This document shows, piece by piece, positions 3,388 to 22,477 of a stretch of DNA of 64,000 nucleotides. Position 1 is the first letter of the stretch. The number at the start of each line of letters is the position of its first letter. The position numbers and the translations under genes were made by a program. The DNA comes from an uncultured Bacilli bacterium (GTDB taxonomy: Bacteria > Bacillota_I > Bacilli_A > RFN20 > CAG-449), in contig CALVKD010000022.1 in NCBI GenBank assembly GCA_944332525.1, positions 2,392-66,391 of the forward strand, read 5' to 3'. The notes below the pieces were generated by a model, which searched no databases, had not been told where the DNA came from, and was given only the letters and a program-made list of their open reading frames with translations.

Positions 3388-3455
3388 AAAAAACGTTTCA
3401 AAAAATGAAAGCCCTTTCTTACGATGTAAAGGACAAACGTAGGAGGTTTCAACAA

Positions 3456-4055
3456 ATGTCAAAAAAATCATTATTAATCGGTTTAGCTTCTTTAGCCATG
3501 CTTATGACAGGCTGCAGTGGAAGCAACACTCAAGCAGCAACGATGACTGCATCATATCTTTCACCATCAGTGATGAGATATATGAATATGCGTCCAACGG
3601 CTAACTACTATACCTTAGAATTTTCAATGGAAAGATTGCAAACCTTTTCTGATGGAACATATCAGTTAGATGTGATTTCTCAAGTTTATTCTGCTCTTAT
3701 TTTACCAGAAGAAGGCAGTGCAGCTACTGGTAATGAAAGAACAAATTATGTAAATTCTTACTATGGAACTTTCACTTCAACAGTTGATGATCTCGATAGT
3801 AATACTTTACATCTTGAGTTAGCTGCTCCAACAAGAATTGTTTCGACTTATGATGCAGCATATTATTACGATACTGCTAATTGGACTGATGCTATGAGTG
3901 CAGTTGAATATACTGATATTGCCGGCAATAAAACAGCTTATACTAGCGGAGATGAATACCTTAGCAAAAATAAATTTGAATCAGCAAGTTTCGTCGCTTC
4001 AATTGATAGCAGTTCAATTCAATATGTTACTTTAGAAATTGTTAAAGCGGAGTAA
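3456..4055 (+). CDS. Lipoprotein of unknown function
   Basis: ORF-track start 3405 is likely too early. The ATG at 3456 is preceded by AGGAGG at 3441-3446. Signal peptide with lipobox LMTGCSG. Overlaps the downstream GH3 gene, so co-operonic. Confidence 0.6.
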   Translation: MSKKSLLIGLASLAMLMTGCSGSNTQAATMTASYLSPSVMRYMNMRPTANYYTLEFSMERLQTFSDGTYQLDVISQVYSALILPEEGSAATGNERTNYVNSYYGTFTSTVDDLDSNTLHLELAAPTRIVSTYDAAYYYDTANWTDAMSAVEYTDIAGNKTAYTSGDEYLSKNKFESASFVASIDSSSIQYVTLEIVKAE

Positions 4056-4059
4056 TTAT

Positions 4060-6948: not shown

Positions 6949-7390
6949 TAAAATAAAAAATTATTTTATGGATAAATCGGTGTTTTATTTCTTGCTTTTA
7001 GGCTCGGGATTATTAGCATTGATTTCCTCAATTGTTTTCTATGTTTTAGACGTGACTACGATTAAAGGTAATATCACATTTACTGATGATTCATTAATGA
7101 CATTTATCTTCATGCTAATTGGGGTTGCTGGATGTATCTTCGCAGCATTAACTAAGTTTAACTTTGCTCCGTTGATTCCGGTTATCTTCTTTGCATTAGG
7201 ATTTTCACAAAATGTGGTTATGGCCTGCTTCCCAGCAGCAGATATCCTCAAAGGTGTTCCATTCTTTACATCTAATATGGATATCGCTAATAGCACATTT
7301 AGGATATTCTTAATTTTCGGAATATTATTCTTCATTTCCCTGGTACTAAGTATCATTTATTGCTTTGCTTCTAGAGAAAAGAAAAGATAA
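6941..7390 (+). CDS. Small integral membrane protein (4 TM), unknown function
   Basis: Strong RBS AGGAGG 8 nt upstream. 8-nt overlap with the GH3 stop. Four hydrophobic helices. Confidence 0.55.
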   Translation: MLSKIKNYFMDKSVFYFLLLGSGLLALISSIVFYVLDVTTIKGNITFTDDSLMTFIFMLIGVAGCIFAALTKFNFAPLIPVIFFALGFSQNVVMACFPAADILKGVPFFTSNMDIANSTFRIFLIFGILFFISLVLSIIYCFASREKKR

Positions 7391-7395
7391 AGAAA

Positions 7396-7436
7396 ACCCG
7401 GTTATGATCTTCTTAGATTATGACCGGGTATTTTTT
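7396..7436. terminator. Bidirectional rho-independent terminator between convergent genes
   Basis: Imperfect hairpin ACCCGGTTATGATC / GATTATGACCGGGT, flanked by a T-run on the plus strand and a T-rich run on the minus strand. Confidence 0.5.
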
Positions 7437-8520
7437 ATTGGTATTGCGCGTATAATGTCATATCCATATAAATTGGGGTGATGTTGGTAACATGTCCGCT
7501 ATTAGGGGTTAATTCTTTATCGGTGTACCAGCCGACAAATTCAGCTCCTTCTTTATAAGCTAATGGAAGATTGATATATTTTCCTTCTTCAACTTTATAG
7601 GTAATTGGATCGAGAGGATTAACTAAACTTCCTCCGTTTAAATCAAGTGTGATGTAGTAATAGTTTTTCGTTTCAGGAGTATCGACTCCAGCGATAACAG
7701 TCTTTAAAATCCAATTACCATTTTCTTTAACATAGATTTCTCCGGTGCTGAGATTAAAATAGAAGTCGCCATTTTCCCCGTTTTGACTATCTGGAACAGT
7801 TGAACCATATAACCAGGTTGTCGCATGCTCTTTAGAAAAAGATACTTCTTCTTGAGTTCCGTCATCATAATGAATTATTAATTTATAATTATTTTCATCT
7901 TCTTGTGTTTCAATATAGTCAATAGAAACGCCTCTTAAGCCGCGAGGAATTCTAAATTCTACACTTGGAGAATCATCGGTAAAAGAGATTGTTACAATAA
8001 CATCATAGCTAATCGGATCATAAGAAGTTGTAATCTCTTTGATAGAGACGCCGTCTTGGCCTTTAGGGACGATAAAACTAACCGGTGAGGAATCATCCGT
8101 AAAAGAAATTGTTATTTGCTGATTGCCGTTTTCTAGCGTTTCTACATTGATGTTCGCTATTCCTCTTCCGTCGACTCCGTTATACACCGGAATATAAGTA
8201 ACAAATGGTTCTTTATTGCTGTCGGTGAAGGTAATAGTTAATTTTACGCGGTTATATTCTTCTTGGAATTCGCTTGTCACATCTTTAATAGATACGCCTT
8301 CTTGTCCGTCTGCACCTTTAGGCAAAGTAAAGCTGACACTTGGCTTATCTTCGCTATTGAAAGAGATTGTGACAACAGTATTACCCTGATTATCAACGTC
8401 TGTAGTTACATCGCTTATGAGATAGCCAGTTTCTTCTTCAGCAAAAAATCCGCAGGCAGAAAGCGAAGGAAGAGAAAAGACGAGCAGAGTTCCTAAAAGC
8501 AGATTTCTAATTTTTTTCAT
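7435..8520 (-). CDS. Lipoprotein with three ~55-aa internal repeats and a C-terminal Flg_new (Listeria-Bacteroides repeat) domain
   Basis: Lipobox LSACG. Repeated GVSIKDVTSEF / GVSIKEITTSYD / GVSIDYIETQED modules. C-terminal LDLNGGS...GAEFVGWYTDKELTP matches the Flg_new GxxFxGW motif. Last gene of the 11-gene operon, with a 4-nt overlap to the upstream gene. Confidence 0.65.
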   Translation of the reverse strand: MKKIRNLLLGTLLVFSLPSLSACGFFAEEETGYLISDVTTDVDNQGNTVVTISFNSEDKPSVSFTLPKGADGQEGVSIKDVTSEFQEEYNRVKLTITFTDSNKEPFVTYIPVYNGVDGRGIANINVETLENGNQQITISFTDDSSPVSFIVPKGQDGVSIKEITTSYDPISYDVIVTISFTDDSPSVEFRIPRGLRGVSIDYIETQEDENNYKLIIHYDDGTQEEVSFSKEHATTWLYGSTVPDSQNGENGDFYFNLSTGEIYVKENGNWILKTVIAGVDTPETKNYYYITLDLNGGSLVNPLDPITYKVEEGKYINLPLAYKEGAEFVGWYTDKELTPNSGHVTNITPIYMDMTLYAQYQ

Positions 8521-10877
8521 TTGTTACCTCCCCTACTGATCAAATCGTTTTGATCAGGTATTTGATTAAATAATTTATGTTGTTGATCGTTTAAGTAAAA
8601 GCGGAATGCATTCATGCCCATCGCCATTGGAACGCATTTAGCTAATGCCTCGGCAAATTGATTTTCTGAAGGAGTTAAATTTTGACCGCTTAAGCAGGCA
8701 TAAGCGATATCCGCAGTTATTTCTTCACTTAGTGATTCATCATTTAATTTAGAAATATCAAGAGAAGAATTATTATATCCTCCTCCATAGAAACTCACCG
8801 CGGTGCAGAGATAATTTTTGCTATCTTCGTTATAGACTAAATTTTGGTTTTTAGCTAATTTCAGTAAAAGATTCTTGATTGGAAAATAGTTATCAATAGT
8901 TATCTTTTCTCCGTCTCCGAATTCACCTAAGAGCTGACCTAGTCTTTCTTCAATCAAGCACGAAGCATCAAGCGAAGCAATATCTTTATAGTCGTAGAAA
9001 CGGACATCGCCTTCTAAAGAGAGATTAACGCCTTTTTGAGTTCCAGAGATCTTATTTGGAAGAACTGGGTCTTCAAGTAATAAATCGAGAAGCTCTTTAA
9101 CAAAGGAAGGCAAGCCGTTATAGAGATAGATTCCGTTAAAATAAGTATCAAAAGCAATAGAGAACAATCCGGATTGATAGAAATATGTATCTTTGATAGT
9201 CGCATTAGTTTTTTCATCGCTAACATTATCTAAGGCGCTTTGGGTTTGTGATAAAGTCTGCTGAGAAATGTTATTATTGTCAAATAACGATGTGTAATAA
9301 GAATCAGCGTTAAATCCTTGATTTCCGTTTAAAAATTCTCCGCTGGTTAGATTATAGTTCTGATTATTATAATTTATAGTTATATTTTTATTTTCATCAA
9401 CTTGGGTGTATTCATTATTGCCGATTTTGAAAAGAAATTCTCTTGTCTGCATTAGTAGGCAGTTATCGAGTAAGAAGTCATCGCTTGAGAAAACTCTAAC
9501 CCCAGTTCGACCGTTTTTGATAATAGAATTTTTTATTGTAACGTTATTTCCTTTAACATCAATGACTGTGCCGGTGAATTCAAGGTTGTAGAGATTATCT
9601 AAGTTGTTGATATTCTGAATTTTGAGATCATTAACTGTGATATTGTCGCCATCAACATACATATTGACATTATCTTGACCATAAGCTTTGACAAATGGAT
9701 AATCAAATAAACCTAAACTGACAAATGTTAGAGGTCCGGTAAATAAATCGCCTTTTTCTTTGGAAGGGGTCAATTTTCCAGTATATTGATCAATCTCGCC
9801 GTTTTTAGGGTAAGCCAATTCATGGATAGAAATATTAAATCCATTACCGTAAAAATCTTTTTGAACGTGGATAGCCGCGTACAGATAGCTATGCTCAAGA
9901 TAATCATCTTTAAAATACTGTTTGATGTATTCATGGTTATATGTCGTTTCAAATTGATAAACTTCACTTATAAAATTGAAACTTTTCGAAGTAAAATCAT
10001 AATTGCCAAATAATTTTGTATCAGAACTTAAATATTCATTGATATAATTACCGTTTTCGTCTTGCTTATAAGTGTTTTGTAATGATTCGAGATTGGTCTG
10101 TAAACAGACGATTTCGCCATTTTCGCTTTTATTCGTGCAGGATAATAGGTCATTATAGTCATAGACATTTATGCCGTTTTCCACGATTGAGAAGGTATAA
10201 TTTGAGGTGATAAAAGCATTATTCCCCGCGCTTAATTCTAAATAAGCTTCGCCAGATCCATTAAAATAAATAACATTATCGACTAATGATATATTTGGTG
10301 AAATATTCTTAATTAAATAGCTTTGATCGCTATCTTCCGGCAATATTTTGACCTCAATTTCAAAACTAGCTAAAGTCTTTTTGTTGATATCGTGATCTTG
10401 TAAATCATATTGTCCAAAATATCTTTTTTTAGCAATTGAAGATGAAGAGGAGGCGATGTTTTTAGGATTGATGATGACCGCGCCATCTTCGTAAATAATG
10501 GCATTAAAAGATTTTGTCACAGTTTTTTTCTCGTTTTGACAGGTAATTATGACCTCACCTTCATTTAAAGCGAAAAGATAGTATTCATTGTTTTGTTTTT
10601 CAATTTTGGCATAGTCATTATCCGTGTCATCTTTATTGTCAACTGTCCAAACTAAATCATTGCCAGGGGCTAAGGTAAAGTTTTTATCAATAATCGGTTC
10701 AGCCGATAATAAATACCCATCACTAGAAATTTTATAGCCTTCATTTTCTTGATAATTCCAGGATATTCCCGTGATATCGACTTCTAAAGTATTTTTTAAG
10801 ATGGTGATATTGACAAAACCGAGAATTGCGATGACAAAAGGAATTAATAATAAGACGAATAAGGTTTTATTTTTCAT
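8517..10877 (-). CDS. Large secreted or membrane-anchored protein with right-handed parallel beta-helix (PbH1-like) repeats
   Basis: N-terminal hydrophobic signal/anchor. Repeats such as VTIKNSIIKNGRTGVRVFSSDDFLLDNCLL are typical of pectate-lyase-fold beta-helices. Asn/Tyr-rich. 4-nt overlaps on both sides. Confidence 0.5.
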   Translation of the reverse strand: MKNKTLFVLLLIPFVIAILGFVNITILKNTLEVDITGISWNYQENEGYKISSDGYLLSAEPIIDKNFTLAPGNDLVWTVDNKDDTDNDYAKIEKQNNEYYLFALNEGEVIITCQNEKKTVTKSFNAIIYEDGAVIINPKNIASSSSSIAKKRYFGQYDLQDHDINKKTLASFEIEVKILPEDSDQSYLIKNISPNISLVDNVIYFNGSGEAYLELSAGNNAFITSNYTFSIVENGINVYDYNDLLSCTNKSENGEIVCLQTNLESLQNTYKQDENGNYINEYLSSDTKLFGNYDFTSKSFNFISEVYQFETTYNHEYIKQYFKDDYLEHSYLYAAIHVQKDFYGNGFNISIHELAYPKNGEIDQYTGKLTPSKEKGDLFTGPLTFVSLGLFDYPFVKAYGQDNVNMYVDGDNITVNDLKIQNINNLDNLYNLEFTGTVIDVKGNNVTIKNSIIKNGRTGVRVFSSDDFLLDNCLLMQTREFLFKIGNNEYTQVDENKNITINYNNQNYNLTSGEFLNGNQGFNADSYYTSLFDNNNISQQTLSQTQSALDNVSDEKTNATIKDTYFYQSGLFSIAFDTYFNGIYLYNGLPSFVKELLDLLLEDPVLPNKISGTQKGVNLSLEGDVRFYDYKDIASLDASCLIEERLGQLLGEFGDGEKITIDNYFPIKNLLLKLAKNQNLVYNEDSKNYLCTAVSFYGGGYNNSSLDISKLNDESLSEEITADIAYACLSGQNLTPSENQFAEALAKCVPMAMGMNAFRFYLNDQQHKLFNQIPDQNDLISRGGNK

Positions 10878-12478
10878 AGCAATTCACCTCCAATATCGAG
10901 ATAACCCCTAAGAACAATTCTTTTGAAAAAGATAATTAATGTTATCAAAAGTGCTGAAAATAATGCGCTTTCGATTAAATAAATTTCCCATGCTTTAATC
11001 TTCAAAAACGTTAAAGCAAAATGGATAAATGCTAAAATTAACGGCAAAGCTAACCCGTATATTGATGAAAGCGAGGATTTAGAACTAGGATTTCTACTTT
11101 TAAGAATGCGAATATTATCGTATAAGCCGATAAGATTTAAACTGATAATAAAAACTAATCCTAAAAATAAAGATACGAAGAAAACATTTAAAGAAATATT
11201 GCTTGAAGAAATTAATATAATTAAAGAAATAATTAACGATAAAGAAGAAATGCAGGACGGAATTAATATTTTTATTAAACACTGATAAATAGGGGAAATC
11301 GGAATAGTTTTACTGACGATTAAACCTTTGCCTTCTCTTTTTAAAGCATACATTGATTGAGAGGCGATTACCGAAGAAAAGAGAAGAATTAAGGTGATGT
11401 TCAAAGCATTAATCAATTCCGGATAGTAAGTTAATAACATTTCCATATTTACATAGAGTAACGAAGTTAGTGAGGAGATAACGACGTAGGTAAAAAATGG
11501 CTGCATGATTAATAATGAAACATAGGAAGATAGATCATTTGATCCGCGGAAAACTAAAATTAATTCTTTTTTTATCAAAGAAACAAAGATAGAGTCCTTT
11601 TTTACTTTGTTAATGATTTGTTTCTTCTTTTTTTCTTTTGAATCCGTTAGATAAAGATGATAAAAAGTTTCAATTAAGATAAAGGCCAAAGCTAATAAAA
11701 TCATCGTCATTCCTAAATAAATAGCTAAGGAAGAAAGAAGGTTGTCTTGCTTAATAAAGACATCAAGCAGCGAAGATAGAGGAAAGGCGTATTTTGATAA
11801 AGAATCTAAAAAAACGATGAAATCTTGGTTGAAGAGATAATCTAATTTCGAATTATTAATGATATTAAGAAAGAGATTTAAAACAAATTGATAAAGGTAG
11901 CAAAGAACGATAACAATAGCCGCGCTTATCAAGATTTGTAATAAATAATGTTTCTTTAAATAATCGATAAAATATTTATAAGGTATTAATAAAATAAAAG
12001 TTAAAGCCGAGGTAATTAATGAAGCAAAAAATGGATAAAGCGCGCTGAGGACGTAATATGATGCGATGTAGATATTATTAATTCCGTAACTGATAAATAA
12101 CGGAAATGAAAAGAGAAATAGAGTTGCCGTTTCACTTAAATAAATCATCAAAAATTTGGCAATGATTAAATCATCTTTGACCAGTGGTCGGTAGCTTAGC
12201 AATAAAATATCTTTTTCATTAAATAAGAAACGATAGGCTTTATTTAATGAAGAAAATATTGCAAGTAAAGCAACTAAAAGTAAGAATAAGACTAAAAATC
12301 CATAATTAGATCCCTTTGAGAATACTTCAATCTTTTTATTTACTGAAATAAAGATAAAAGTTTCCAAAGCGATAAATAAGGCGCAAAGCAAAAGAGAAGA
12401 AATAATCTTTATAATTCTCCTTTTTTTATTAACCTCATTTTGTTCTTTGAAATCTTTAATCAGTAAATCAAGAATCAT
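10874..12478 (-). CDS. ABC transporter permease (polytopic, roughly 10-12 TM)
   Basis: Highly hydrophobic throughout with many predicted helices. Directly downstream of, and overlapping, an ABC ATPase gene. Confidence 0.6.
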   Translation of the reverse strand: MILDLLIKDFKEQNEVNKKRRIIKIISSLLLCALFIALETFIFISVNKKIEVFSKGSNYGFLVLFLLLVALLAIFSSLNKAYRFLFNEKDILLLSYRPLVKDDLIIAKFLMIYLSETATLFLFSFPLFISYGINNIYIASYYVLSALYPFFASLITSALTFILLIPYKYFIDYLKKHYLLQILISAAIVIVLCYLYQFVLNLFLNIINNSKLDYLFNQDFIVFLDSLSKYAFPLSSLLDVFIKQDNLLSSLAIYLGMTMILLALAFILIETFYHLYLTDSKEKKKKQIINKVKKDSIFVSLIKKELILVFRGSNDLSSYVSLLIMQPFFTYVVISSLTSLLYVNMEMLLTYYPELINALNITLILLFSSVIASQSMYALKREGKGLIVSKTIPISPIYQCLIKILIPSCISSLSLIISLIILISSSNISLNVFFVSLFLGLVFIISLNLIGLYDNIRILKSRNPSSKSSLSSIYGLALPLILAFIHFALTFLKIKAWEIYLIESALFSALLITLIIFFKRIVLRGYLDIGGELL

Positions 12479-13206
12479 AATTTTTCTCCGTAAACCTTAA
12501 AGAAAATGGTTTTTAAATTCTTTCTTTTGAACGGCTCCTTGTTTAAATCAATTAAAAGATCAATTTTTCCGTCATTGATAATTGCGACGCGGTCGCAGAT
12601 TTCTGCGACTAAGTCAATATTATGGGAAGTAACAAAAATCGTATTCTTATTTTGAACATAGCTTTTCATCATTTTGACTAATGTTTCATAAACGATGATA
12701 TCTAATCCGACAGTCGGTTCATCGAGAACCCAAAGCGATGGATTATGAATTAAAGAAGCCATTAAACAGATTTTTTGTTTCATGCCATGCGAATATTCTT
12801 TAATTGGGCGAAGCAAATCTTCATCGGCTAATTCAAATTTATTTTTTAAAAAGTTAAAATTGCTTTCAAAGGCTTCTTGGCTCATTTGATAGCAGGAGGC
12901 GATAAATTCAAGATATTCTTTTCCGCTCATGATTTCATAAGTAAGAGGTTCACTTGGAACATAGCCAAAATTGTTTTTGACTTCTAAAGGTTTGGTTTTA
13001 ATATCGAGATTATCAATTAAAATTTGACCTTCATTAAATCTTTTTAAACCAATCATGCAATCAATTAATGTCGACTTACCCGCGCCATTTTTGCCTAATA
13101 AGCCAAAAATTTCTCCTTTATCTACGCTTAAAGAGATTCCTTTTAGGACCTCTTTATTGCCATATGATTTGTGAAGGTTAATTATTTCAATTGCTTTATT
13201 TTCCAT
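12475..13206 (-). CDS. ABC transporter ATP-binding protein
   Basis: Walker A GKNGAGKST, signature YSHGMKQK, Walker B WVLDEP, H-loop SHN. Confidence 0.85.
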   Translation of the reverse strand: MENKAIEIINLHKSYGNKEVLKGISLSVDKGEIFGLLGKNGAGKSTLIDCMIGLKRFNEGQILIDNLDIKTKPLEVKNNFGYVPSEPLTYEIMSGKEYLEFIASCYQMSQEAFESNFNFLKNKFELADEDLLRPIKEYSHGMKQKICLMASLIHNPSLWVLDEPTVGLDIIVYETLVKMMKSYVQNKNTIFVTSHNIDLVAEICDRVAIINDGKIDLLIDLNKEPFKRKNLKTIFFKVYGEKL

Positions 13207-14524
13207 ATAAGCCTCCCCAGAGAGATTTTAACCAGATTAATTTTGCTTGACCTTTATTAATAAGTGCGAGAGAAGAATTGCAGTTAGGGCAGAAAAAGTT
13301 ATCTTGATCGAAACGTTTATCTTCCTTTAAAGAGAGTTTTCCGCAGATAGGACATTTTTTAGATAACGAGCCTTTGACTGTTAGCCTTAATGATAAGAAG
13401 ATATCATCTAAGCTAACCCGTGAATCTTTTTTAGACAAAACATCAATCTCTAAGATATTCTTATTTTGTTTAGATTTATTTATTTGACAGATATAGAATA
13501 CATTATCAAATTCTTCAAAGATTGCTTCATCTAATTCTTCTTTGATTATGATTAAGTTTTTTGTATAGTTATCACCATATTTAACTTCAAGATAAAGATA
13601 ATTGTCGATTTTGTTAAATTTATATGTAAATCCATCTTTAGAGCAAATTAAATCAGTTATTTGAATTTGATTATCGCTAAAAGTGAGCGATGATGTTTTA
13701 TTAAAGCGATATTTATTTTCAATTAAAGTTTCTAAAATTTTTAAGGTTACGTAATTTACAAACATCGAATCATCATTATTTCTTTTAAGATTAGTTCGAT
13801 AAAAGCGGTAGAGATAATAATACTTTTGATCATGTAATAAGATATTTGTTGGAATAATCGGTAAAGATATTGTTTCTTTTGATAAGAGTTTATAAAACGA
13901 TGTCTGTTCAATCCTTTTCCCTTTCGCGTATACTTTGTTAATCAATTGATTGTCTTGATTATCATCGCTAAGTAAGGCGGAAATATTTTTATTATTCTCC
14001 GTGATATCGTTTACTAAACTGTTTTCAGAAAAAGTTATCTGTTCTTGCTTATAAAGATTCTCTAAGGAATTTCCTAACGGATTATCTTTATAGAATTTAT
14101 TGATGTCTTGCATCAACAAATTAAAAACATAGATTACAAATTTGTTTTCATAAGTGATGATATCTTCTTTGGAAGATTTACTATAAACGTATTCAGGAGC
14201 TAAATTTTGACCCTTTCTTTTCCACAGAGAAGAATCGCGTAAGGTATTGATATAGTCTTCATTATCAATTTGATAAGACTGTTCGCTTCTAATTAATAAA
14301 GTCTCAGGACTATTTAAATAATGCGGTGATGAAGCGATAGAAAGAATAACATCAAAAAGATAGTTAATGTCTTTGATATAACTATTAAGCAGAGAATTAG
14401 TGTTGTTTGTTAAATGAATTTTATCATCGTTTAATAATTCTTCAAACGTTGTTAAAGAAACACAGTTAGAAAGATAACTGGTTAATTCATCATTCAATTT
14501 TGCGTAATAGTTAATTTCTTTCAT
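13196..14524 (-). CDS. Hypothetical protein with a candidate PD-(D/E)xK nuclease-like motif and a C-terminal C4 zinc ribbon; possible McrC-like partner of the upstream McrB-family NTPase
   Basis: C-terminal CPICGK...CPNC. SKDGFTYKFNKIDNYLYLEVKYG gives a D...hhhEhK pattern. Starts 1 nt after the McrB-like gene and overlaps the ABC ATPase gene. Confidence 0.35.
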   Translation of the reverse strand: MKEINYYAKLNDELTSYLSNCVSLTTFEELLNDDKIHLTNNTNSLLNSYIKDINYLFDVILSIASSPHYLNSPETLLIRSEQSYQIDNEDYINTLRDSSLWKRKGQNLAPEYVYSKSSKEDIITYENKFVIYVFNLLMQDINKFYKDNPLGNSLENLYKQEQITFSENSLVNDITENNKNISALLSDDNQDNQLINKVYAKGKRIEQTSFYKLLSKETISLPIIPTNILLHDQKYYYLYRFYRTNLKRNNDDSMFVNYVTLKILETLIENKYRFNKTSSLTFSDNQIQITDLICSKDGFTYKFNKIDNYLYLEVKYGDNYTKNLIIIKEELDEAIFEEFDNVFYICQINKSKQNKNILEIDVLSKKDSRVSLDDIFLSLRLTVKGSLSKKCPICGKLSLKEDKRFDQDNFFCPNCNSSLALINKGQAKLIWLKSLWGGLYGK

Positions 14525-14525
14525 C

Positions 14526-16370
14526 TTAGAATCTTCTTAATAGTTTTTTTATGAATTGCTTAGATAATGTAAAATCTTCTTTTGAATAAGTTTTGTTAAT
14601 TAAATCAAGTAAGTCTTCTAAACCTTGTTCGACATAGTCTTCAAAGCGTCCATCGAGTTTATTTAAGATTTTACGGCAGAGCATAAAATCAAGAGCGTCT
14701 TCTTTTCTTCCTCCAGCAGCAACAAAAACTGGGGTGAACAGAATAATTTGGTTGAGAATACGGTTACCAAATGTTACATCAAATGTCTCATAGATATAAT
14801 CTGTAAGGATTTTAAATTTTGCTAAATCATCTTTTGATAATTGATAATCTTCGTTATTTTGAGCTTCAGAGAATAAAGACTGCAATTTGCTATAGGAGAG
14901 AGTGATTTTCTCTGTTTCTCCTTCTACTGGGAAATAATCATTTTGCTCATTAAAGGAAATAGTGATAGCCCGGTCATAGACTTTATCAGTGATGGTATAA
15001 GTCGAGTCATCTTTATTAGCAGTTCCGATAAAATAAGTTGTCGGAGCGATATCGAGAATTCCATTTTCTAAATGATCTGGTGCAGTAAAATTAAACGGCA
15101 AGTTCATGATTTTTAATTTCCATTGATCAATAGGATATTCAAGAATTGATAAGAAATCAGCAAAGTAATATTCAACGCGCGAGATATTCATTTCATCAAG
15201 AACCATGATATTGATATGGTTATCTCTATAAGTAGCTTGATATAAACGCTTTAAGAATTCTGTTTCATTATAAGATTTAGAGAAATCATTATAGTAACCT
15301 AATAATGATGTTCTATCTCTCCATGTTGCTTGTACTGGAGTAAAGAAAGACTCTTCGCTGATAAATTCTGAGAAATATCTCGCTAATGAAGATTTACCGG
15401 TTCCTGATAAACCTTCAAGAATGATTAATCTTGAGGCTGATAAAGCTGAAATAAAGCAGCGGATAGTATTGATATCAAAATAGAGTTTTTCTTCTTTAGC
15501 TAAATAATTTCTAAATTTGGTAACTAAGTCAGGTAAGGTAATATCATCATTAAATTCTTCATTTTGATATGTTGCTAAGACATCAATTTCACATAGAGAA
15601 GGGAAAACCTTTTCTTTAGTGAGTTCTTCATTATCGGATATAGGTGAAGCAACAGCTTGGTTAACTAAGGATGAATTATTAACTGAAGCTGCAGAAGAAG
15701 GTGAAACTTCACCAAAAGTTTCTGCTAGATGACCTTGTTTAACTTGGTCATTGAGTTCTTTTTCTTCTTGTTTCCTTTCTTCGCTTTCTTGCTCTTTTGT
15801 TTCTTTATTGAAGAAGCGGAAAGGTTTATCAATTGATTTTAAATTGATAACTAGCATTGCTGCGAATAAAACAATTGAGCCGAGAATAATGAAAATAATT
15901 AATCCGACAAATAAGGATTCTAGAACGAATAAAAAGGAATTTCCAACATATTCCCAGTTAACCGGAATATGAGCGATAATGCCAATTACTGACGCTAAAA
16001 TAAGGCAGATAAAGAATGTTGCAACATAAATGCCTATCCATTTTAATGATGCAGCTTTTTCTTCATAATATTTAGCTAAACGCATTTCATAGATAAATGC
16101 CGCGGCAAATAGTAATGAATAAACGATTACCATGCTAAATAAAATATATGTACCAAATGAGGCATCAATGCTCGGTAAGGATAATATTTTTCCTAGCATC
16201 TGAATTGGATTATCTTCTTTCATTAAGCCTTTTGCGTCTAGACATAATCCTGAAAATACAGTGACTAGTAAATAGAAATAAACTATCGCTAGAGCAATAA
16301 AGTTTTTTCTTGTGAAATGTGTTTTAAATCTCGGTTTTTCCATGTTTATTTCCTCCATCTCCATAAGCAC
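14526..16370 (-). CDS. Membrane-anchored McrB-family AAA+ GTPase/ATPase (4 N-terminal TM helices, charged linker, C-terminal AAA_5/McrB-like domain)
   Basis: GTG start (ORF-track M). Four hydrophobic helices in the first ~180 aa, then an E/K-rich linker. Walker A ILEGLSGTGKSSLA. Walker B MVLDEMNISR resembles McrB DEINRAN. IGTANKDDS resembles the McrB NTAD motif MNTADRS. Confidence 0.55.
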   Translation of the reverse strand: MLMEMEEINMEKPRFKTHFTRKNFIALAIVYFYLLVTVFSGLCLDAKGLMKEDNPIQMLGKILSLPSIDASFGTYILFSMVIVYSLLFAAAFIYEMRLAKYYEEKAASLKWIGIYVATFFICLILASVIGIIAHIPVNWEYVGNSFLFVLESLFVGLIIFIILGSIVLFAAMLVINLKSIDKPFRFFNKETKEQESEERKQEEKELNDQVKQGHLAETFGEVSPSSAASVNNSSLVNQAVASPISDNEELTKEKVFPSLCEIDVLATYQNEEFNDDITLPDLVTKFRNYLAKEEKLYFDINTIRCFISALSASRLIILEGLSGTGKSSLARYFSEFISEESFFTPVQATWRDRTSLLGYYNDFSKSYNETEFLKRLYQATYRDNHINIMVLDEMNISRVEYYFADFLSILEYPIDQWKLKIMNLPFNFTAPDHLENGILDIAPTTYFIGTANKDDSTYTITDKVYDRAITISFNEQNDYFPVEGETEKITLSYSKLQSLFSEAQNNEDYQLSKDDLAKFKILTDYIYETFDVTFGNRILNQIILFTPVFVAAGGRKEDALDFMLCRKILNKLDGRFEDYVEQGLEDLLDLINKTYSKEDFTLSKQFIKKLLRRF

Positions 16371-19000
16371 ATTGTTGTATCAAAATAGAATTGACCATAA
16401 CCAGCAGTTATTGGTGTCGCTGATGATGTTTTTTCATATACTACAGTACCATCACTAGTCCAGCTAGGATCCTTATTTTTATCTAGAAGTTCTCTAATGG
16501 AATCAGTACTGTTATATAGACTCTTATCTGAAGCTTTTACAATAACATTATTCAAATAATTATCAATTGTACTGGAAGTATCTTTGAATGTAGAGTTATA
16601 TCTGCTCGCATCTGCGTTGATATTTACATTGTTACCATAGCTACCATATTCAAAAGATGAATTTTCCAAATATGTTATAGATATATTATTTGTCCATAGA
16701 CTATTATCTGTTGGAGCAAGGGGTTTCTCGTCCCAATATCCATATTTAATTGACGCTTCGGCAGTATATGATAAATTCAATGGTAATGCTTCAATAAAAC
16801 TTCCTGCAAAGTTTATGTACCAACGATTATTCTTTTTAACTGCTAAATTTAATGTCATATTTTCATAAACAGGTTCACCAGTTTGGTAATCTGTTGTAGT
16901 TTGGACTTTGATAGTTTGACTAAATACATCATCGGCTGTTTGATATGATTCAGATTTAGAAGGTGTTATTCGAGGAGTAGTATTTCCGTTGTTTGGCCAA
17001 AAGTAGAAATAAGTATTACCGTTTGAATCAGTATAAGTATTATCGTAATAGTTAAATGATGAATTATTATTGTGAGATTTAGGGTAGATAAAGATTGAGG
17101 ATAACGCTCCATCATTTAAATTGTCTAAGATAGCTTTTGTTAGAGCGTCTTTACTTAATCCACCCAAAATAAAATCACGAATTAATTTTGCTATGTCAAC
17201 ATTATCCATGCTACTGCTGCCACGGAAATAACAAGACCAATCATCATCTAGCTTTGAAAATTCAGATGAATTGTTCTTAAAATTGCTGTTATTTGTGAGA
17301 TTAATGTTTCCACCTAATCTGTTATTATTACCGGAAACTGTTAAAGTACCATCAATAGTTACATCCGGTAAGTCTGTAATTTTATTCCATTCGGCATAGA
17401 GAGAATTACTTCCATATGGATTTATTGTATAGTAGACAGGATAAAGGAAATTATTTAAAGTCATCAATCCAGCATTATCGCTAAAATGTACTGACGAGGA
17501 TGTGTCACAATAGACTTTACTTCCTGGGAACATATCAACTCTTTGAGTCCAAGTGAATGATGAACTATGTGTTAATTTTAAGTTAATCCAAGGTGGAATT
17601 GGAAAGTGGACACCAACCATATCTAGTGTTACACCAATTGGTGGTAAACGATCAGACACTGAGAATTCTAAATTCATTTTTAATGAGTTTAACTGTATTT
17701 CCGCATTATTTGCCGTGTATATTTCATCATAATTAACATACGGAAGATATTTTCGATAATCTGTTTTTGTGGAATCAATTGTATGCATGCCTTCAACAGA
17801 ACGAATGATGTAGGAATCAGAAGAATTACGCGTATTTGATAATAGGAATGTATTATCAGGCCCAATAACATTCATAATCGTTCGATTATATGCGCTATAA
17901 GCGAAGAGTTCAGTTAAACCATATAATTTTCCGCCATATTCGAATTTAATGGTTGTATTGATATAAGGCATTGAAAATAACGAGAAAGGAACACTTTTTG
18001 AAGTATATGATCCGACAGTATGTCCGCCGCCACCAAAGTCTTCAACTAAGAAACCAGAATAAATAGAAGCATTATTTTTAACTGTTATCTGACCTTCTCC
18101 TGTTGAATCATAAATCAAGCCATGGCCGTAAATTGTTGATCCATCCTCCATCGTTATGGTATGTCCGTTTAAATCTAAGGCAGTATATTTTCCAGATATG
18201 ACATGGCCAGAAAGTCCAGATCCACTTGTACCATTTTGGGCTTCTAAGACTAATTTTGCATTAGATTCAAGAGTTAAATCATTTTGTAAAACTATAGTGA
18301 TTAAATTATTCGCGGCAGTAACTGCGCTATAAGCATGAGAAGCACTAGCACTGCTTGGATTATTAGTAAAAGTAGTTTCATCAGAATAATTGGTCCCGTC
18401 GTTAAGAACAAATTTTACTGTCTTATTACTAATATTAGTAACGCTTAATGGAACATAAGTATTAATTGCTTCGCCGCTACCATTAGCGCCTGGATCAAAA
18501 ATCGCTGTGCCGCTATTTTGTGAAGTTGGAGATGAGTTATAATTTAATTTTATAACCGGTGCTGAACTATCGTTAATATAGTCTGACATCGTATAAGAAG
18601 AATAATCTTTTTCGACCTTAGTTATTTCAATTTTTGTAATCTTATTGCCGTTAAGAGGATCTTCGATATGGTAATTATTTGAAGAATCATCAAAAAGATA
18701 TTCAGTATTTGTAACTGTTTTATTGTTATAAGAAAGAGTTGTTTTAACTTCTAGTCCTTCAAAATGAGTATCAGTTGAACTCAATGAAAATGGTAAGCTA
18801 ATATCATCACCGATATCACCCATCATTTCATAGGTTTTACCTTGTCCGTCATTAACGATAATTGAGATATCACCGTTTTCCCCGGTCAAAGATACCATAT
18901 TGTTTGTAAGCACGATAAAAGTACCATTGGCTACGATTAAACTAGACATGGTAATAAAGATTAACATTGCTAATAAAGTTTTAAATTTGAAATGTTTCAT
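16346..19000 (-). CDS. Large secreted Asn/Ser/Thr-rich protein, probable beta-helical surface protein
   Basis: N-terminal signal/anchor (LIFITMSSLIVANGTF). Gly-rich repeats (NGTSGSGLSGHVISG...GHTITMEDGSTIYGHGLIYDSTGEG). 884 aa with no catalytic motif recognised. 25-nt overlap with the downstream gene. Confidence 0.45.
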   Translation of the reverse strand: MKHFKFKTLLAMLIFITMSSLIVANGTFIVLTNNMVSLTGENGDISIIVNDGQGKTYEMMGDIGDDISLPFSLSSTDTHFEGLEVKTTLSYNNKTVTNTEYLFDDSSNNYHIEDPLNGNKITKIEITKVEKDYSSYTMSDYINDSSAPVIKLNYNSSPTSQNSGTAIFDPGANGSGEAINTYVPLSVTNISNKTVKFVLNDGTNYSDETTFTNNPSSASASHAYSAVTAANNLITIVLQNDLTLESNAKLVLEAQNGTSGSGLSGHVISGKYTALDLNGHTITMEDGSTIYGHGLIYDSTGEGQITVKNNASIYSGFLVEDFGGGGHTVGSYTSKSVPFSLFSMPYINTTIKFEYGGKLYGLTELFAYSAYNRTIMNVIGPDNTFLLSNTRNSSDSYIIRSVEGMHTIDSTKTDYRKYLPYVNYDEIYTANNAEIQLNSLKMNLEFSVSDRLPPIGVTLDMVGVHFPIPPWINLKLTHSSSFTWTQRVDMFPGSKVYCDTSSSVHFSDNAGLMTLNNFLYPVYYTINPYGSNSLYAEWNKITDLPDVTIDGTLTVSGNNNRLGGNINLTNNSNFKNNSSEFSKLDDDWSCYFRGSSSMDNVDIAKLIRDFILGGLSKDALTKAILDNLNDGALSSIFIYPKSHNNNSSFNYYDNTYTDSNGNTYFYFWPNNGNTTPRITPSKSESYQTADDVFSQTIKVQTTTDYQTGEPVYENMTLNLAVKKNNRWYINFAGSFIEALPLNLSYTAEASIKYGYWDEKPLAPTDNSLWTNNISITYLENSSFEYGSYGNNVNINADASRYNSTFKDTSSTIDNYLNNVIVKASDKSLYNSTDSIRELLDKNKDPSWTSDGTVVYEKTSSATPITAGYGQFYFDTTMCLWRWRK

Positions 19001-19003
19001 CTT

Positions 19004-20005
19004 TTATTCTTTCTTTTTTGAATTTATCGTTTTTTCATTTACTTTAATTTCGCCATTAAGGTTATCAATAACTTTCATGGTTCCTTCTTCAGTATCAGCT
19101 TCTTCTTTAGAAATAAATTTTCCGTTTTCGAATATATAGCGATATCCTTTATAAATTAATTCTTGATGAAATGTATTAGTTATTGATTCTTCAATATCAT
19201 CAAAGTCTTTGATTAAATCGGTTAAAAGCAAAGTTCTTTCTTGAATAGCTTTTTCATATTTGCTGCGGTAATGGTCAAACATGAAGTAGCAATAAATAAT
19301 CGCGATAATGGTAATTATTCCGGCACCTGATTGAAGAAAGATAATAAAGATTCCTACCATTGGAATTTTGGTACCAGTATACTTACCGACAATTTTATCA
19401 AATGTTAAATAATTTCCGTATTGCGATTGAGAATCATCGGTATTATTTGCATCGCCTTGAGTGAGAAAATGATATTGATTATCAACAATATCTATTCTGA
19501 CAACTCTATGAACGATTGTGACATTGTTATTGTTTTTAAAAGCGATTATATCATATAGTTTGATATCTTCGGGATTATTGACTTTTTTGATAGTTATTAC
19601 ATCATATGTTGCAATTTGGTTATTCAGATGGTTATCGATAAGATAGGTGTTTTCAGGATTCTTTTTTTCCATTGATCCTGAAGCGATAACAACGACTGAT
19701 GTATCATTAATCATCAAATTATCGTTAAAACGGTTGATGATAGAAAAAGTCAAAAATAAGAGAATAATGGCAAAAAGAATATAAGTTAAAGTTTTTCCTA
19801 ATATAGAAAATACTTTTTTTGTCTTACTTTTTGCTTTTTGCTCATCAATGATTGCTTGATCAATTAAACTGATGTCTTCTTTTCCTTCTTCAATATTAGC
19901 GATATTGTATTTAAAGTAATATCTAAATAATACGGTAAATACTGCTGAAAACGAAAGAAGGCAGATGAGAGTTACGACCAAGGATAAAATCTCAATGTTA
20001 CTCAT
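19004..20005 (-). CDS. sipW: Sec11/SipW-type (S26B, archaeal/ER-type) signal peptidase I with extra N-terminal TM segment and long C-terminal cytoplasmic tail
   Basis: Catalytic boxes VVIASGSMEKKNPEN (SGSME Ser box), TIVHRVV (His box) and LTQGDANNTDD (KGDNN-like box). Flanking TM helices. ORF-track TTG start at 20047 is replaced by the ATG at 20005, 2 nt after the upstream stop. Confidence 0.7.
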   Translation of the reverse strand: MSNIEILSLVVTLICLLSFSAVFTVLFRYYFKYNIANIEEGKEDISLIDQAIIDEQKAKSKTKKVFSILGKTLTYILFAIILLFLTFSIINRFNDNLMINDTSVVVIASGSMEKKNPENTYLIDNHLNNQIATYDVITIKKVNNPEDIKLYDIIAFKNNNNVTIVHRVVRIDIVDNQYHFLTQGDANNTDDSQSQYGNYLTFDKIVGKYTGTKIPMVGIFIIFLQSGAGIITIIAIIYCYFMFDHYRSKYEKAIQERTLLLTDLIKDFDDIEESITNTFHQELIYKGYRYIFENGKFISKEEADTEEGTMKVIDNLNGEIKVNEKTINSKKKE

Positions 20006-20621
20006 CGTCGTATACCGAAATTGCAAAGATTGAAGAATCTGCTGCAATATTTAAATAGCTAAGAATTTTCGATAAGTTATCATTAGGTGATATTTCCCCA
20101 TAGTTTAACTGACAGGAAATGTTTAAATAATAATCAGTATTAATAGAAACGTTACCATCGACAATTTTAAAAGTCATTGAATCGGCAGGAGTAGTTACTA
20201 TTGACGATGGAGAAAAAGTTACTAGACTGCTTTTCTCTCCGATATATTTAGAAATTGTTAAAGAAGTTTGCAAAGCATTGTTTTTCTGTAAATAGGTCGC
20301 ATTTAAATTTTGTAAATCAATATCAATATTAATTAAATTTAAATTCTCATTAGATAAAAAAGATACTGGTAAAGAAAATGTCATACTTGCAGAACTTATT
20401 GATCCTGTTTGCACTTCTTTTTCATAACGGTAACTAACTTTATTTGAAGTAATCGATAGAATTTTACTTTGGTTATTTTTAGTTTCAACAGTCGCGGCAT
20501 TAACTTGAAATGTTATATCTTGACTTTGATTACCTGTAGTTAACCAAGTTGAAAAGCCAACGCTGATTAGACTAAGCGTTGCAATAGCTAATATCAGATT
20601 GACTTTTCCTAACTTGATCAT
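19998..20621 (-). CDS. Small secreted protein with SipW-cognate-type signal peptide (TasA/CalY-like candidate), paralog 3
   Basis: N-terminus MIKLGKVNLILAIATLSLISVGFSTW. 207 aa, in the size range of camelysin/TasA proteins. Immediately upstream of the SipW-like peptidase. Confidence 0.5.
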   Translation of the reverse strand: MIKLGKVNLILAIATLSLISVGFSTWLTTGNQSQDITFQVNAATVETKNNQSKILSITSNKVSYRYEKEVQTGSISSASMTFSLPVSFLSNENLNLINIDIDLQNLNATYLQKNNALQTSLTISKYIGEKSSLVTFSPSSIVTTPADSMTFKIVDGNVSINTDYYLNISCQLNYGEISPNDNLSKILSYLNIAADSSIFAISVYDDE

Positions 20622-20632
20622 ATTGATTAATT

Positions 20633-21367
20633 TTATGCTGGAACGTATGAAGTTAATGTAATTGTAAATTTTTGACCATTTAAAGCTTTAAGTGCTTCTA
20701 ATGCGGTGATGACATCATCTAAATTGTCATCATTTGCAAATTTAGAAGGATTAAGATTGATTCCTTCAACTGCAAATGCACTTCCCCAAGCAAAAGAATA
20801 TGTCGCGGTGACTTTTAAGTCAGTATTACCGTCACCTGCTGCCTCAAATGTTAAACCGTTGCCTTCATCACCTGGAAGGGGTGTTCCGGTTTTATGTGCA
20901 AATAAACTAGTATTAGAATCAGTTAATGCGTTTCCATTTCTTTGAGGTGCGGTAATATAATTTTCCCCGATTAAATTGCTATAAGCAGATGGATTATCCC
21001 ATTTAATATAAACTCCGACATCCTTTGTAAAATTACCTTCGGCGTTTAATACATCGCTGATGGTAAAAGAAAAGTTAAAAGTTAAATCTTCATAACTTTC
21101 TCCGTCCCAAACAATCGGACCCTCATCATCATCTTTTTTTGCATCAAATACAATGTCTTGATCAGTTGAAGTAATTTCACTTATAACAAAGCGCTTATCG
21201 CTGACATCGCTAACGGATACGTTGAAATCATTAAATGTTTTGGTGCTTGTGCTTTGAATTACCCATGATGAAAAAGCTACTCCAACAAGAGAGACAGCAG
21301 CTAATCCAAAAAGAGAACCAGTAAGAATTTTAACTTTTGTCATTTTATTCATAATTAAATCCTCCAA
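20633..21367 (-). CDS. Small secreted protein with SipW-cognate-type signal peptide (TasA/CalY-like candidate), paralog 2
   Basis: N-terminus ...LVGVAFSSWVIQSTSTKTFNDF; compare TasA LVGGGTWAAFNDI and CalY IGGGTFAFFSD. Shares C-terminal motifs (FAWGSAF, ALNGQKFTITLTS) with paralog 1. Confidence 0.55.
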   Translation of the reverse strand: MEDLIMNKMTKVKILTGSLFGLAAVSLVGVAFSSWVIQSTSTKTFNDFNVSVSDVSDKRFVISEITSTDQDIVFDAKKDDDEGPIVWDGESYEDLTFNFSFTISDVLNAEGNFTKDVGVYIKWDNPSAYSNLIGENYITAPQRNGNALTDSNTSLFAHKTGTPLPGDEGNGLTFEAAGDGNTDLKVTATYSFAWGSAFAVEGINLNPSKFANDDNLDDVITALEALKALNGQKFTITLTSYVPA

Positions 21368-22153
21368 TTATTTTTTTTCGGCCACTACTTCGGCAGTGAG
21401 AGTTAGTTGTTTGCCATGGAGAGCAGTATGCAAAGCTTTAAGCTCTTGAGTAATTTTATTCGCGGCATCAGTTTCATCTTCATATGTCATTGAGTTATAG
21501 TAATTGGCCGGTGACATTTCGTTAAAGAAACTGCCCCAACGGAAATCAAGAACTTTACCTTGGAGAGTTATGACCGTTAAGGCTCCATCAGTTGCCGTTT
21601 CTTGATTTGTTAAGTCAATTTCTGCTGGGGCGGCAAGATATTCCCAAGAATCGTTGGCTTCTAAGCCAGTTGATGACATAGCAGTTTTTTGAGTTACGCG
21701 TGAATCACCTAATAAATTCTCTTCATCTTGCGTAAGGTTAGGAGTGTTGACAGCATAAGTACTGTCGTCATATTTCAAAGAGAATTTTAAAGTTAGATTT
21801 TGTGTTCCTTTATCAAAAAATTCTGAACCATATTTTAATGTAATATCCGCGGTAACCTGTAATGCTGTTGGGTCAAAAGCTCCTTCGTCGGTTTTAACTA
21901 AATTACTATCATTTTCTGTGAGCTTAACATTTTCTTTAAGCTCTATGAGACTATCTGTTAGTGATACAGAAAAATCAACAGAAGTATTCTTTACTGTATC
22001 AACGTTGATTGTGGCTGTTGCGTCATCGGTATTATTATTGACTCCAACAATATAGGTTGCAAAACCTGTTGTCAGCAACGCAACTCCGGCAAAGGCCATA
22101 ATGCCGGTAACTACCCATTTTCTCCTGGTAGTCAGGTTTGTTTGCTTTTTCAT
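21368..22153 (-). CDS. Small secreted protein with SipW-cognate-type signal peptide (TasA/CalY-like candidate), paralog 1; first gene of the operon
   Basis: N-terminus KWVVTGIMAFAGVALLTTGFATY. 261 aa. FRWGSFF and ALHGKQLTLTAEV are paralogous to gene 20633-21367. Confidence 0.5.
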   Translation of the reverse strand: MKKQTNLTTRRKWVVTGIMAFAGVALLTTGFATYIVGVNNNTDDATATINVDTVKNTSVDFSVSLTDSLIELKENVKLTENDSNLVKTDEGAFDPTALQVTADITLKYGSEFFDKGTQNLTLKFSLKYDDSTYAVNTPNLTQDEENLLGDSRVTQKTAMSSTGLEANDSWEYLAAPAEIDLTNQETATDGALTVITLQGKVLDFRWGSFFNEMSPANYYNSMTYEDETDAANKITQELKALHTALHGKQLTLTAEVVAEKK

Positions 22154-22183
22154 TAATATAATTTTCCTTTCGTTTGCTTAATT

Positions 22184-22200
22184 ATAACATACTTTTTTGC
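22184..22200 (-). promoter_or_regulatory. Candidate extended -10 promoter (TGTTATAAT on minus strand) for the 11-gene operon
   Basis: Reverse complement of 22191-22199 is TGTTATAAT, about 38 nt upstream of the ATG at 22153. It lies in a 310-bp AT-rich divergent intergenic region, with an AAAGGA RBS in between. Confidence 0.35.
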
Positions 22201-22477
22201 ATGTAAATATTTAATATAAAAAGATAATATTAGAAATATGCATAAATAATATAATATATGAAAAAAAATACAAATTATATTGCAAAATTATGCTTAATTT
22301 TTGCTTGAAATTAGAAATATATAAAAACAATATATTTTTGAATTCAATATAAATTTTATAATAATGTAATATTGTTATTATTTTGTGCTGCTTTAGACAC
22401 TATTTAAGAAAAAAAGTTCGTTTTTGATTAAAAAAAATGATAATTAATTTAAAATATATTAAGGAATGGTTGCCTTT

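Follow-up and report, generated by a model that had tools for sequence, protein, structure and literature searches.

We analysed a 64,000-nucleotide (nt) stretch of chromosomal DNA (here called the window; guanine-cytosine content about 32%) from the genome of an uncultured Bacilli bacterium. Eleven minus-strand genes at positions 7435–22153 of the window form a single operon, which codes for three small secreted or anchored proteins, a SipW-type signal peptidase, a large secreted protein, a membrane-anchored McrB-like GTPase, its McrC-like partner, both parts of an ATP-binding cassette (ABC) transporter, a β-helix protein and a lipoprotein (Table 1). The operon probably builds a cell-surface structure. 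With a probability of roughly 0.55, we read the whole block as a single operon that codes for an extended CoCoPALM-type machine of the cell envelope. A link to CoCoPALM is seen in the trio of a SipW-type peptidase, an NxD GTPase and a DUF2357 protein, which recurs in unrelated gut bacteria.

CoCoPALM is the name that Bell et al. (2024, eLife 13:RP94800; PMC11090510) gave to McrBC systems linked to signal peptidases, for which they proposed a role in pilus assembly. Their paper devotes two sentences to these systems, gives no gene lists and leaves the description to a forthcoming publication; no later paper describing CoCoPALM was found in our literature search. An initial annotation of the window had considered the gene combination of the operon to be unprecedented. 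This was an overstatement, as the link between McrBC and signal peptidases already has a name, although no ABC, β-helix or lipoprotein module was described for the named systems.

Operon structure and conservation

All eleven open reading frames (ORFs) lie where the initial annotation had placed them, and its proposal of a single, tightly coupled operon is borne out by the coordinates, by a putative extended -10 promoter bounding the block at the 5' end and a strong terminator at the 3' end, and by synteny in other genomes. The identical locus is also present on ENA metagenome scaffolds. The 4-nt ATGA overlaps (8517/8520, 10874/10877, and 12475/12478) and an 11-nt overlap (13196/13206), noted previously, follow directly from the ORF coordinates. 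The 25-nt overlap noted along with them (16346/16370) holds, like a 50-nt one (19998/20047), only for the longest ORFs with GTG/TTG starts; the later ATGs picked by gene callers on identical contigs give a 2-nt gap and an 8-nt overlap at these two junctions. With either start choice, every junction is about 15 nt or less. Nine of the eleven products, rather than eight as first counted, are membrane-bound or exported, judging by N-terminal hydrophobic segments, lipoboxes or transmembrane (TM) helices.

It had been suggested that internal promoters or terminators could split the block into unrelated units. Promoter-like sites inside the block occur at the chance level (81 versus 79 ± 9 in shuffled sequence), and a consensus scan of this kind cannot exclude internal promoters or terminators; it also missed the putative promoter in front of the first gene because its spacer is 15 nt long. 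Terminator-like sites in the scanned region, the real 3' hairpin included, are equally at the chance level (9 versus 7.2 ± 2.5 in shuffled sequence), and only two weak minus-strand ones are located inside genes. The terminator at the 3' end is bidirectional and is shared with the convergent gene at 6941–7390. No riboswitch or other known RNA element was recognised upstream of the operon: at gathering thresholds, no Rfam family matches anywhere in the window, and a search of the 22100–22520 region at E ≤ 1 was equally negative.

For the comparison with other genomes, relatives of the gene for the 786-aa (amino acid) β-helix protein were searched for in one genome per species. They were found in 213 genomes; 80 loci were kept, and 61 of these had enough flanking sequence for counting synteny. 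A core of seven genes, coding in this order for the SipW-type peptidase, the GTPase, the McrC-like protein, the ABC ATPase, the 12-TM permease, the β-helix protein of about 800 aa and the lipoprotein, is complete and colinear in 57 of the 61 loci, with median gaps of 0–5 nt. This decisively settles the concern that homologues of the individual genes might never co-occur elsewhere. Sequence identities to the window co-vary across most core components (r from 0.68 to 0.84), while pairs involving the fast-evolving McrC-like gene correlate weakly (r from 0.23 to 0.45). One to five or six small paralogues are located upstream of the SipW gene. The SipW gene adjoins the GTPase gene in most loci, including the P0405-type ones described below; in the window and in locus L009, a gene similar to that of the 884-aa protein is inserted between the two. 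No conserved flanking genes were found around the core, so the operon boundaries stand.

The loci come from "Bacilli", "Mollicutes" and Acholeplasmatales/Anaeroplasmataceae metagenome-assembled genomes, from Candidatus Onthovivens, Enteromonas, Scatosoma and Caccosoma, from Clostridium sp. CAG:568 and from the cultured Anaeroplasma bactoclasticum.

The peptidase, the GTPase and the McrC-like protein

Gene 4 codes for a SipW/archaeal-endoplasmic-reticulum-type signal peptidase I, as initially proposed. Its product matches TIGR02228 well above the cutoff (67.6 bits versus 51.85, E = 1.1e-18) and the SipW model with E = 3.3e-15, and the catalytic residues S125 (SGSM), H180 (HR) and D199 (GD.N) are invariant across 57 homologues. 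The protein has three TM segments, one of them extra, followed by a conserved cytoplasmic tail of about 90 aa. The tail (residues 255–347, IYYKG..Y.F) is conserved together with an invariant G55/D58 motif between TM1 and TM2, and both are absent from the 184–219-aa peptidases of P0405-type loci. We consider the tail a candidate for contact with the GTPase or with the McrC-like protein.

The description of the gene 6 product as a membrane McrB-like NTPase holds as well. It matches AAA_5 (PF07728) with 22.4 bits (cutoff 22), McrB is its only match in PDB (E = 0.02–0.05), and its N-terminal part contains four TM segments. The Walker A (GLSGTGKS), Walker B (VLDE.N..R) and TAN-K-D-[D/E] motifs are invariant or nearly so: N452 and D454 are found in all homologues, and position 455 is occupied by D in 54 and by E in 3 of the 57. 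Since the gap-free HMMER alignment to Escherichia coli McrB also permits an NxxD reading, the NxD assignment rests on this conservation pattern. The motifs of the window GTPase agree with the "NxD" branch that Bell et al. (2024; PMC11090510) defined within the McrB GTPases.

The nucleic-acid-binding specificity domain found at the N-terminus of McrB is lacking in the window protein, where TM segments are located instead. No DivIC/FtsB Pfam match was obtained for the window GTPase, and it has a short acidic linker and no evident long coiled coil, as judged without a formal coiled-coil predictor. Some homologues match DUF4271, a membrane domain. The search of PDB with the GTPase family profile was dominated by spurious TM-region matches to TMEM87A and was set aside. 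The relatives of the GTPase form 691 clusters (50% identity) at E ≤ 1e-30. The eight sequences inspected among them have varied membrane N-termini, with an N-x-D-D motif in seven cases and N-V-D-D in one. The GTPase domain is 36% identical (E = 2e-64) to a CoCoNuT-type AAA protein with an NHDE motif encoded on a Deinococcus plasmid, where the GTPase gene is followed by a gene for a DUF2357 protein. The closest plasmid-borne relatives in general are McrB/DUF2357 pairs in defence-type contexts.

Gene 7 codes for a protein that had been called nuclease-like. DUF2357, the N-terminal domain of McrC, is recognised in 28 of the 59 family members (best E = 3.9e-10) but scores below the threshold in the window copy. 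At the C-terminus, C391, C394, C412 and C415 are the only invariant residues, and the family profile matches zinc ribbons from PDB. A sequence-level search found no PD-(D/E)xK or other nuclease family in any of the 59 members, and residues ~250–390 of the family contain no conserved acidic or lysine motif. The protein is a combination of DUF2357 with a Cys4 zinc ribbon in which no nuclease domain or motif is detected.

A second SipW–GTPase–McrC-like trio (308, 595, and 376 aa) was seen in locus L036 (18520–22341), a few kb downstream of a complete seven-gene core and with no ABC/β-helix module of its own.

Relation to CoCoPALM

The window operon shares with CoCoPALM a membrane-anchored NxD[D/E] GTPase, a McrC (DUF2357) homologue alongside it and a gene of the signal peptidase family in the same operon. 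The most informative relatives are two P0405-type metagenomic loci, L099 and L139, from unrelated gut bacteria. Both code for secreted proteins, a SipW-type peptidase, a GTPase and a DUF2357 protein, in that order, and both have a second S26-like peptidase ORF after the GTPase/DUF2357 pair (found by scanning in L099 and read from the sequence in L139). Their GTPases belong to the P0405 type, one of those among the relatives of the window GTPase, which measures about 500 aa and has two TM helices and a heptad-like helix. Their secreted proteins carry "...TTASYAWF..." signals close to the "...LLTTGFATW..." of the window proteins; no model match supports this resemblance, and the hhalign comparison of the signal regions is weak (E = 0.016). 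No ABC or β-helix genes are present in either locus. In L099, a gene for an EAL-domain protein (cyclic di-GMP phosphodiesterase type; 5776–6522) lies between the secreted proteins and the peptidase, which hints at cyclic di-GMP control of such systems.

The ABC ATPase, permease, β-helix protein and lipoprotein genes are conserved in our loci but unmentioned for CoCoPALM. Judging by gene content, the window operon can be described as the CoCoPALM trio in canonical order with a lineage-specific four-gene module added to it. The locus is best classed as an extended version of CoCoPALM that is specific to Mollicutes-like gut Bacilli with reduced genomes.

Exported proteins

The products of genes 1–3 had been taken for TasA-like proteins, for which no sequence, profile or fold link could be found. 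TasA/camelysin (Peptidase_M73) membership was rejected on Pfam, NCBIfam, profile and fold tests. The small proteins have no relatives in Pfam, NCBIfam or PDB, and their family profile retrieves only TM noise from PDB. The hhalign comparison with Bacillus subtilis TasA (sequence entered by hand) gave a probability of 0.4%, and the TasA-type jelly-roll fold was not recovered. The AlphaFold2 model of protein 1 (predicted local distance difference test score 73.5) has residues 1–54 disordered, followed by a β-sandwich and a long C-terminal helix. The three proteins constitute a new β-sandwich family that is most conserved in its signal peptide.

The family comprises at least 109 clusters, and its genes adjoin the sipW-type gene. 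The signal region, with the consensus SS(K/R)RKWVVGGVAFFGAVALLTTGFATWV(I/V)G, is its best conserved part (top-residue frequency 0.72 versus 0.27–0.46 elsewhere). It consists of a basic n-region and a hydrophobic core ending in ...LLTTGFATW, with G-F-A at the -3/-1 site. Residues ~33–54, just after the signal, are predicted to be disordered and include a conserved VTVDT. This class of signal motif is present in 48–56% of the small-family members, in 45% of the 884-family and in none of the 79 β-helix proteins. LLTTGFATW is also similar to the GGGTWAAF motif of TasA, a resemblance that no model match supports.

The 884-aa product of gene 5 is rich in asparagine, serine and threonine (32% together, versus 18.6% background). 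Neither the protein itself nor a search via 26 relatives yielded any family or PDB match. The conserved core of its family covers residues ~235–510. β-Helix-like repeats, which the initial annotation proposed for this protein too, are putative here. Homology between the 884-aa and 786-aa proteins was tried and rejected (hhalign probability 2.8%). A similar gene is detectable in about 30 of the 80 loci by BLASTP (E ≤ 1e-3) and in 26 of 88 loci by the stricter tblastn (E ≤ 1e-5). Its place differs from locus to locus. It may follow the lipoprotein gene or precede the small genes; an insertion between the SipW and GTPase genes is seen in the window and L009 alone. More generally, the core is accompanied, in no fixed position, by large variable secreted proteins (640–1,700 aa) that share the signal motif. 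In some 884-family relatives (L006, 4070–7327; L027, 13170–16430), Hint, an intein/hedgehog-type autoprocessing domain, is found together with Big_2 or Flg_new, and these relatives resemble polymorphic or autoprocessed surface proteins.

The transporter, the β-helix protein and the lipoprotein

Both parts of the ABC transporter proposed initially are supported by family matches. The ATPase is similar to drrA (1.8e-51) and GldA (2.5e-46) models, in both cases under the equivalog cutoffs, and homologues of the permease match PF09847 (12TM_1) in addition to the family given in Table 1. The β-helix suggested earlier for the 786-aa protein is confirmed by the fold test: residues ~256–720 form a right-handed parallel β-helix of the pectin-lyase type. 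Its best structural matches are polysaccharide lyases, epimerases and depolymerases, VexL and RbmB among them. The Flg_new lipoprotein was also recognised correctly, and a lipobox is present in 67 of its 72 homologues.

Table 1. Features of the operon and its transcription signals (positions in the window). The three elements upstream of gene 1 were read from the sequence.
Feature	Position	Strand	Length	Description
Small secreted/anchored protein 1	21368–22153	-	261 aa	Signal peptide RRKW...ALLTTGFATY; β-sandwich body and C-terminal helix
Small secreted/anchored protein 2	20633–21367	-	244 aa	Paralogue of protein 1 (26% identity), shares N-terminal motif AFSSW
Small secreted/anchored protein 3	19998–20621	-	207 aa	Divergent paralogue (21% identity), motif GFSTW
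SipW/archaeal-type signal peptidase I	19004–20047	-	347 aa	Longest ORF; likely start ATG 20005 gives 333 aa
Large secreted protein	16346–19000	-	884 aa	Variable accessory/cargo gene; signal motif like that of the small proteins
Membrane-anchored McrB-like GTPase	14526–16370	-		Four TM segments (residues 1–180), acidic linker, C-terminal AAA+ domain of the NxD clade
McrC-like partner	13196–14524	-	442 aa	Cytoplasmic; DUF2357-type N-terminal domain, C-terminal Cys4 zinc ribbon
ABC ATPase, ABC-2/DrrA-like	12475–13206	-	243 aa	PF00005, E = 5.5e-27
12-TM ABC permease	10874–12478	-	534 aa	PF16949 ABC_tran_2, 26.9 bits (cutoff 25.7); hydropathy
Membrane-anchored extracellular protein	8517–10877	-	786 aa	N-terminal TM helix, immunoglobulin-like β-sandwich ~37–238, right-handed parallel β-helix ~256–720
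Lipoprotein	7435–8520	-	361 aa	Lipobox LSAC, repeated G-x-D-G β units, C-terminal Flg_new (PF09479, 4e-11)
Extended -10 element TGTTATAAT	22189–22181	-		Putative promoter
TTTACA	22207–22202	-		15 nt upstream of the extended -10 element
Ribosome-binding site AAAGGA	22170–22165	-		Before the first gene
Intrinsic terminator	7429–7396	-		Hairpin with 15-bp stem, then T-run TTTCTTTATCTTTT; 5 nt past the last stop codon

Comparison with other known systems

The tapA-sipW-tasA operon of B. subtilis and the sipW-bsaA-bsaB-bsaC operon of Clostridium perfringens (PMC7395162, PMC11580942) likewise place a SipW-type peptidase beside paralogous secreted proteins of about 25 kDa, with conserved signals ending in a small-residue/aromatic motif. 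The segment following the signal is a possible donor strand in our proteins, and donor strands are used in TasA and BsaA fibres (PMC11580942). The mature small proteins of the window, however, are not homologous to TasA/camelysin by the tests above, the TasA and BsaA fibres need neither an NTPase nor an ABC transporter, and the window peptidase is almost twice as long, with its extra TM segment and conserved cytoplasmic tail. McrB is mentioned a single time in the C. perfringens BsaA paper, presumably within an E. coli strain genotype.

With McrBC and CoCoNuT systems the operon shares the AAA+ GTPase family, the Walker A, Walker B and sensor-1 Asn motifs and the DUF2357 partner directly downstream. 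It differs from them in having TM helices in place of the DNA/RNA-binding N-terminal domain and a partner in which no nuclease is detected, and in the placement of the module among exported proteins rather than in a defence island.

Likeness to type IV filament systems (type IV pili, type II secretion and Com) is a functional analogy only. It includes N-terminal hydrophobic signals, a dedicated peptidase, a cytoplasmic hexameric NTPase coupled to a membrane domain and minor-subunit paralogues, but no component is homologous. A Ser-His signal peptidase I stands against an aspartyl prepilin peptidase, a McrB-like GTPase against a PilB-family ATPase, and cleavage is predicted to occur C-terminally to the hydrophobic segment rather than N-terminally to it.

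The 786-aa protein is only 9–15% identical to VexL, RbmB, alginate lyases/epimerases and phage depolymerases, and it has no assigned catalytic residues. Unlike these remodelling enzymes, it is TM-anchored and has immunoglobulin-like spacers, and the operon contains no glycosyltransferase or polysaccharide synthesis genes.

Proposed mechanism and alternative explanations

The three ~25-kDa paralogues would be exported by Sec, as would, probably, the 884-aa protein. The SipW-type peptidase would then cleave the exported proteins, probably after G-F-A, freeing them at the external side of the membrane. Once mature, they may build a surface structure, for example a fibre or a coat, or become part of one, with residues ~33–54 as a possible donor strand. 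On the cytoplasmic face, a hexamer of the membrane GTPase, with four TM helices per subunit, could provide GTP-driven work or gating for assembly together with its nuclease-less McrC-like partner, the McrB-like GTPase taking the place of the hexameric ATPase of type IV filament systems. The ABC-2 transporter, the β-helix protein and the lipoprotein would constitute a lineage-specific sub-module which exports, anchors, remodels or binds a glycan or lipid component.

A bolder idea goes further, and we offer it tentatively, as possible but doubtful. A membrane-embedded hexamer of the McrB-like GTPase, a motor exapted from a restriction enzyme and plugged by the McrC-like protein, might use GTP to drive assembly or extrusion of fibres from the SipW-processed β-sandwich subunits. 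It would represent a new class of surface-filament machines, analogous to type IV pili without being homologous to them, and coupled in Mollicutes-like Bacilli to the ABC exporter, the β-helix protein and the lipoprotein for tethering or glycan decoration.

Several observations weigh against the interpretation of the block as one extended CoCoPALM-type machine. The function of every member of the system is one that we infer from its sequence. The small proteins have no detectable kinship to known pilins or TasA, and a monomer model cannot show polymerisation. The N-terminus of the window GTPase has four TM segments, while that of CoCoPALM has an FtsB-like single TM segment with a coiled coil. 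The GTPase domain matches the candidate-defence model PDC-M26A of PADLOC (E = 6.6e-39), and a role in defence is what has otherwise been predicted for the NxD McrB clade (PMC11090510). Some loci, finally, contain only parts of the set. L027 (5293–12400) has small protein, SipW, ABC, permease and β-helix genes without the GTPase and McrC genes, and L061 and L068 (Anaeroplasma bactoclasticum) keep only the ABC, permease and β-helix genes. The L068 contig (ATCC 27112; 124–14582) codes for a 1,988-aa Flg_new protein, the ABC ATPase, the permease, the β-helix protein, a Big_2/VanZ protein and a CmpB-like protein, and has no SipW, GTPase or McrC gene. These exceptional loci suggest two sub-modules; as the sub-modules are found apart, the eleven genes need not be one machine.

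Taken to its end, this separation would mean that independent modules merely share a transcript: SipW with its secreted substrates as a sipW-tasA-like matrix or adhesin set, the GTPase pair as a membrane-linked defence or stress-sensing device, and the ABC-2 exporter with the β-helix enzyme and the lipoprotein for work on a glycan (capsule or exopolysaccharide remodelling, or foraging). Besides the loci just listed, L099 and L139, which carry the trio alone, agree with such an arrangement, as do the VexL and RbmB-type matrix/capsule remodelling enzymes among the best structural matches of the β-helix protein. We consider it rather unlikely, given one gene order in 57 of 61 genomes with 0–5-nt gaps and overlapping stop and start codons, the correlated divergence of the components (r = 0.68–0.84) and the adjacency of the SipW and GTPase genes in most Mollicutes-like and P0405-type loci. 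The large variable surface proteins point in another direction: the operon could be an apparatus for secretion and display of the 884 family and of the Flg_new/Hint giants, with the small proteins as stalk or anchor subunits and the ABC transporter and GTPase as energy sources. This would fit the 640–1,700-aa proteins that share the signal motif and accompany the core, the occurrence of Flg_new, Big_2 and Hint in large proteins, and the position of the 1,988-aa Flg_new protein of Anaeroplasma directly upstream of the ABC gene. It is nevertheless improbable, because ordinary Sec-type N-terminal signals require no special translocon, and an 884-like gene is detected in no more than about 30 of the 80 loci, many loci appearing to have none in the flank.

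Quite improbable, in our estimate, is a system of the CoCoNuT/McrBC lineage that acts at the membrane against phages or in conflicts and in which the GTPase–McrC pair would sense infection and the exported proteins with the ABC transporter would act as effectors or a surface shield. The PDC-M26A match, the predicted defensive role of the NxD clade (PMC11090510), the McrB/DUF2357 pairs in defence-type contexts among the closest plasmid-borne relatives and the Hint modules, typical of polymorphic-toxin-like proteins, in some 884 relatives all favour it. On the other side, no nuclease or other effector domain is detected in the McrC-like protein. In PADLOC-DB 2.0 only the GTPase domain is recognised, no other operon protein matches (neither the 442-aa partner nor any of four further proteins gave a specific match), and no complete known defence system is found. 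Also against it are the absence of the locus from viral contigs and its stable, vertical-looking synteny in at least 200 species, between housekeeping flanks rather than in defence islands. The extended CoCoPALM-type machine remains the reading that we prefer.

Genomic surroundings

The operon is flanked by chromosomal housekeeping genes, and no tRNA genes are present in the 64 kb. A phage origin was considered and rejected, as PHROGs gave nothing relevant and 2.9 million viral contigs contained no relatives of the β-helix protein.

Divergently from the operon promoter, a plus-strand gene (22466–24001) codes for a membrane protein with Big_2 and VanZ domains. Relatives of this protein are encoded directly downstream of the β-helix gene in L068 (10880–13573) and L061 (6235–8928), and in L040 (13682–16648) the gene for a related Big_2 and VanZ protein follows the lipoprotein gene, just past the end of the core. 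The Big_2/VanZ proteins may have a loose functional association with the operon.

The minus strand at 1183–3284, some 4 kb past the operon's 3' end, codes for a pair consisting of a GHKL histidine kinase and a LytTR response regulator. On the other side, three consecutive minus-strand genes (30974–37876) code for fused ABC ATPase and FtsX-type (MacB-like) permease proteins of 643, 643, and 935 aa. They are followed on the plus strand by a gene for an AdhE-type bifunctional aldehyde/alcohol dehydrogenase (39660–42323) and by an Rnf-type complex cluster with RnfC and RnfD matches (43552–49716).

Implications

Uncultured gut Bacilli with reduced genomes form a large and obscure group in humans, poultry and ruminants (Onthovivens, Enteromonas, Scatosoma, Caccosoma, and Acholeplasmatales-like lineages), and the operon ranks among their best conserved multi-gene loci. 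If our interpretation is correct, the GTPase engine of a DNA restriction system has been recruited for work at the cell surface and would represent a further NTP-driven filament or envelope machine. The gene lists, motifs and fold reported here would then be available for the named but undescribed CoCoPALM class, and the small proteins would make up a new SipW-dependent family that can be recognised by its signal peptide. For the gut Bacilli themselves, the locus would provide a concrete route to study their attachment to hosts, glycans and other microbes.

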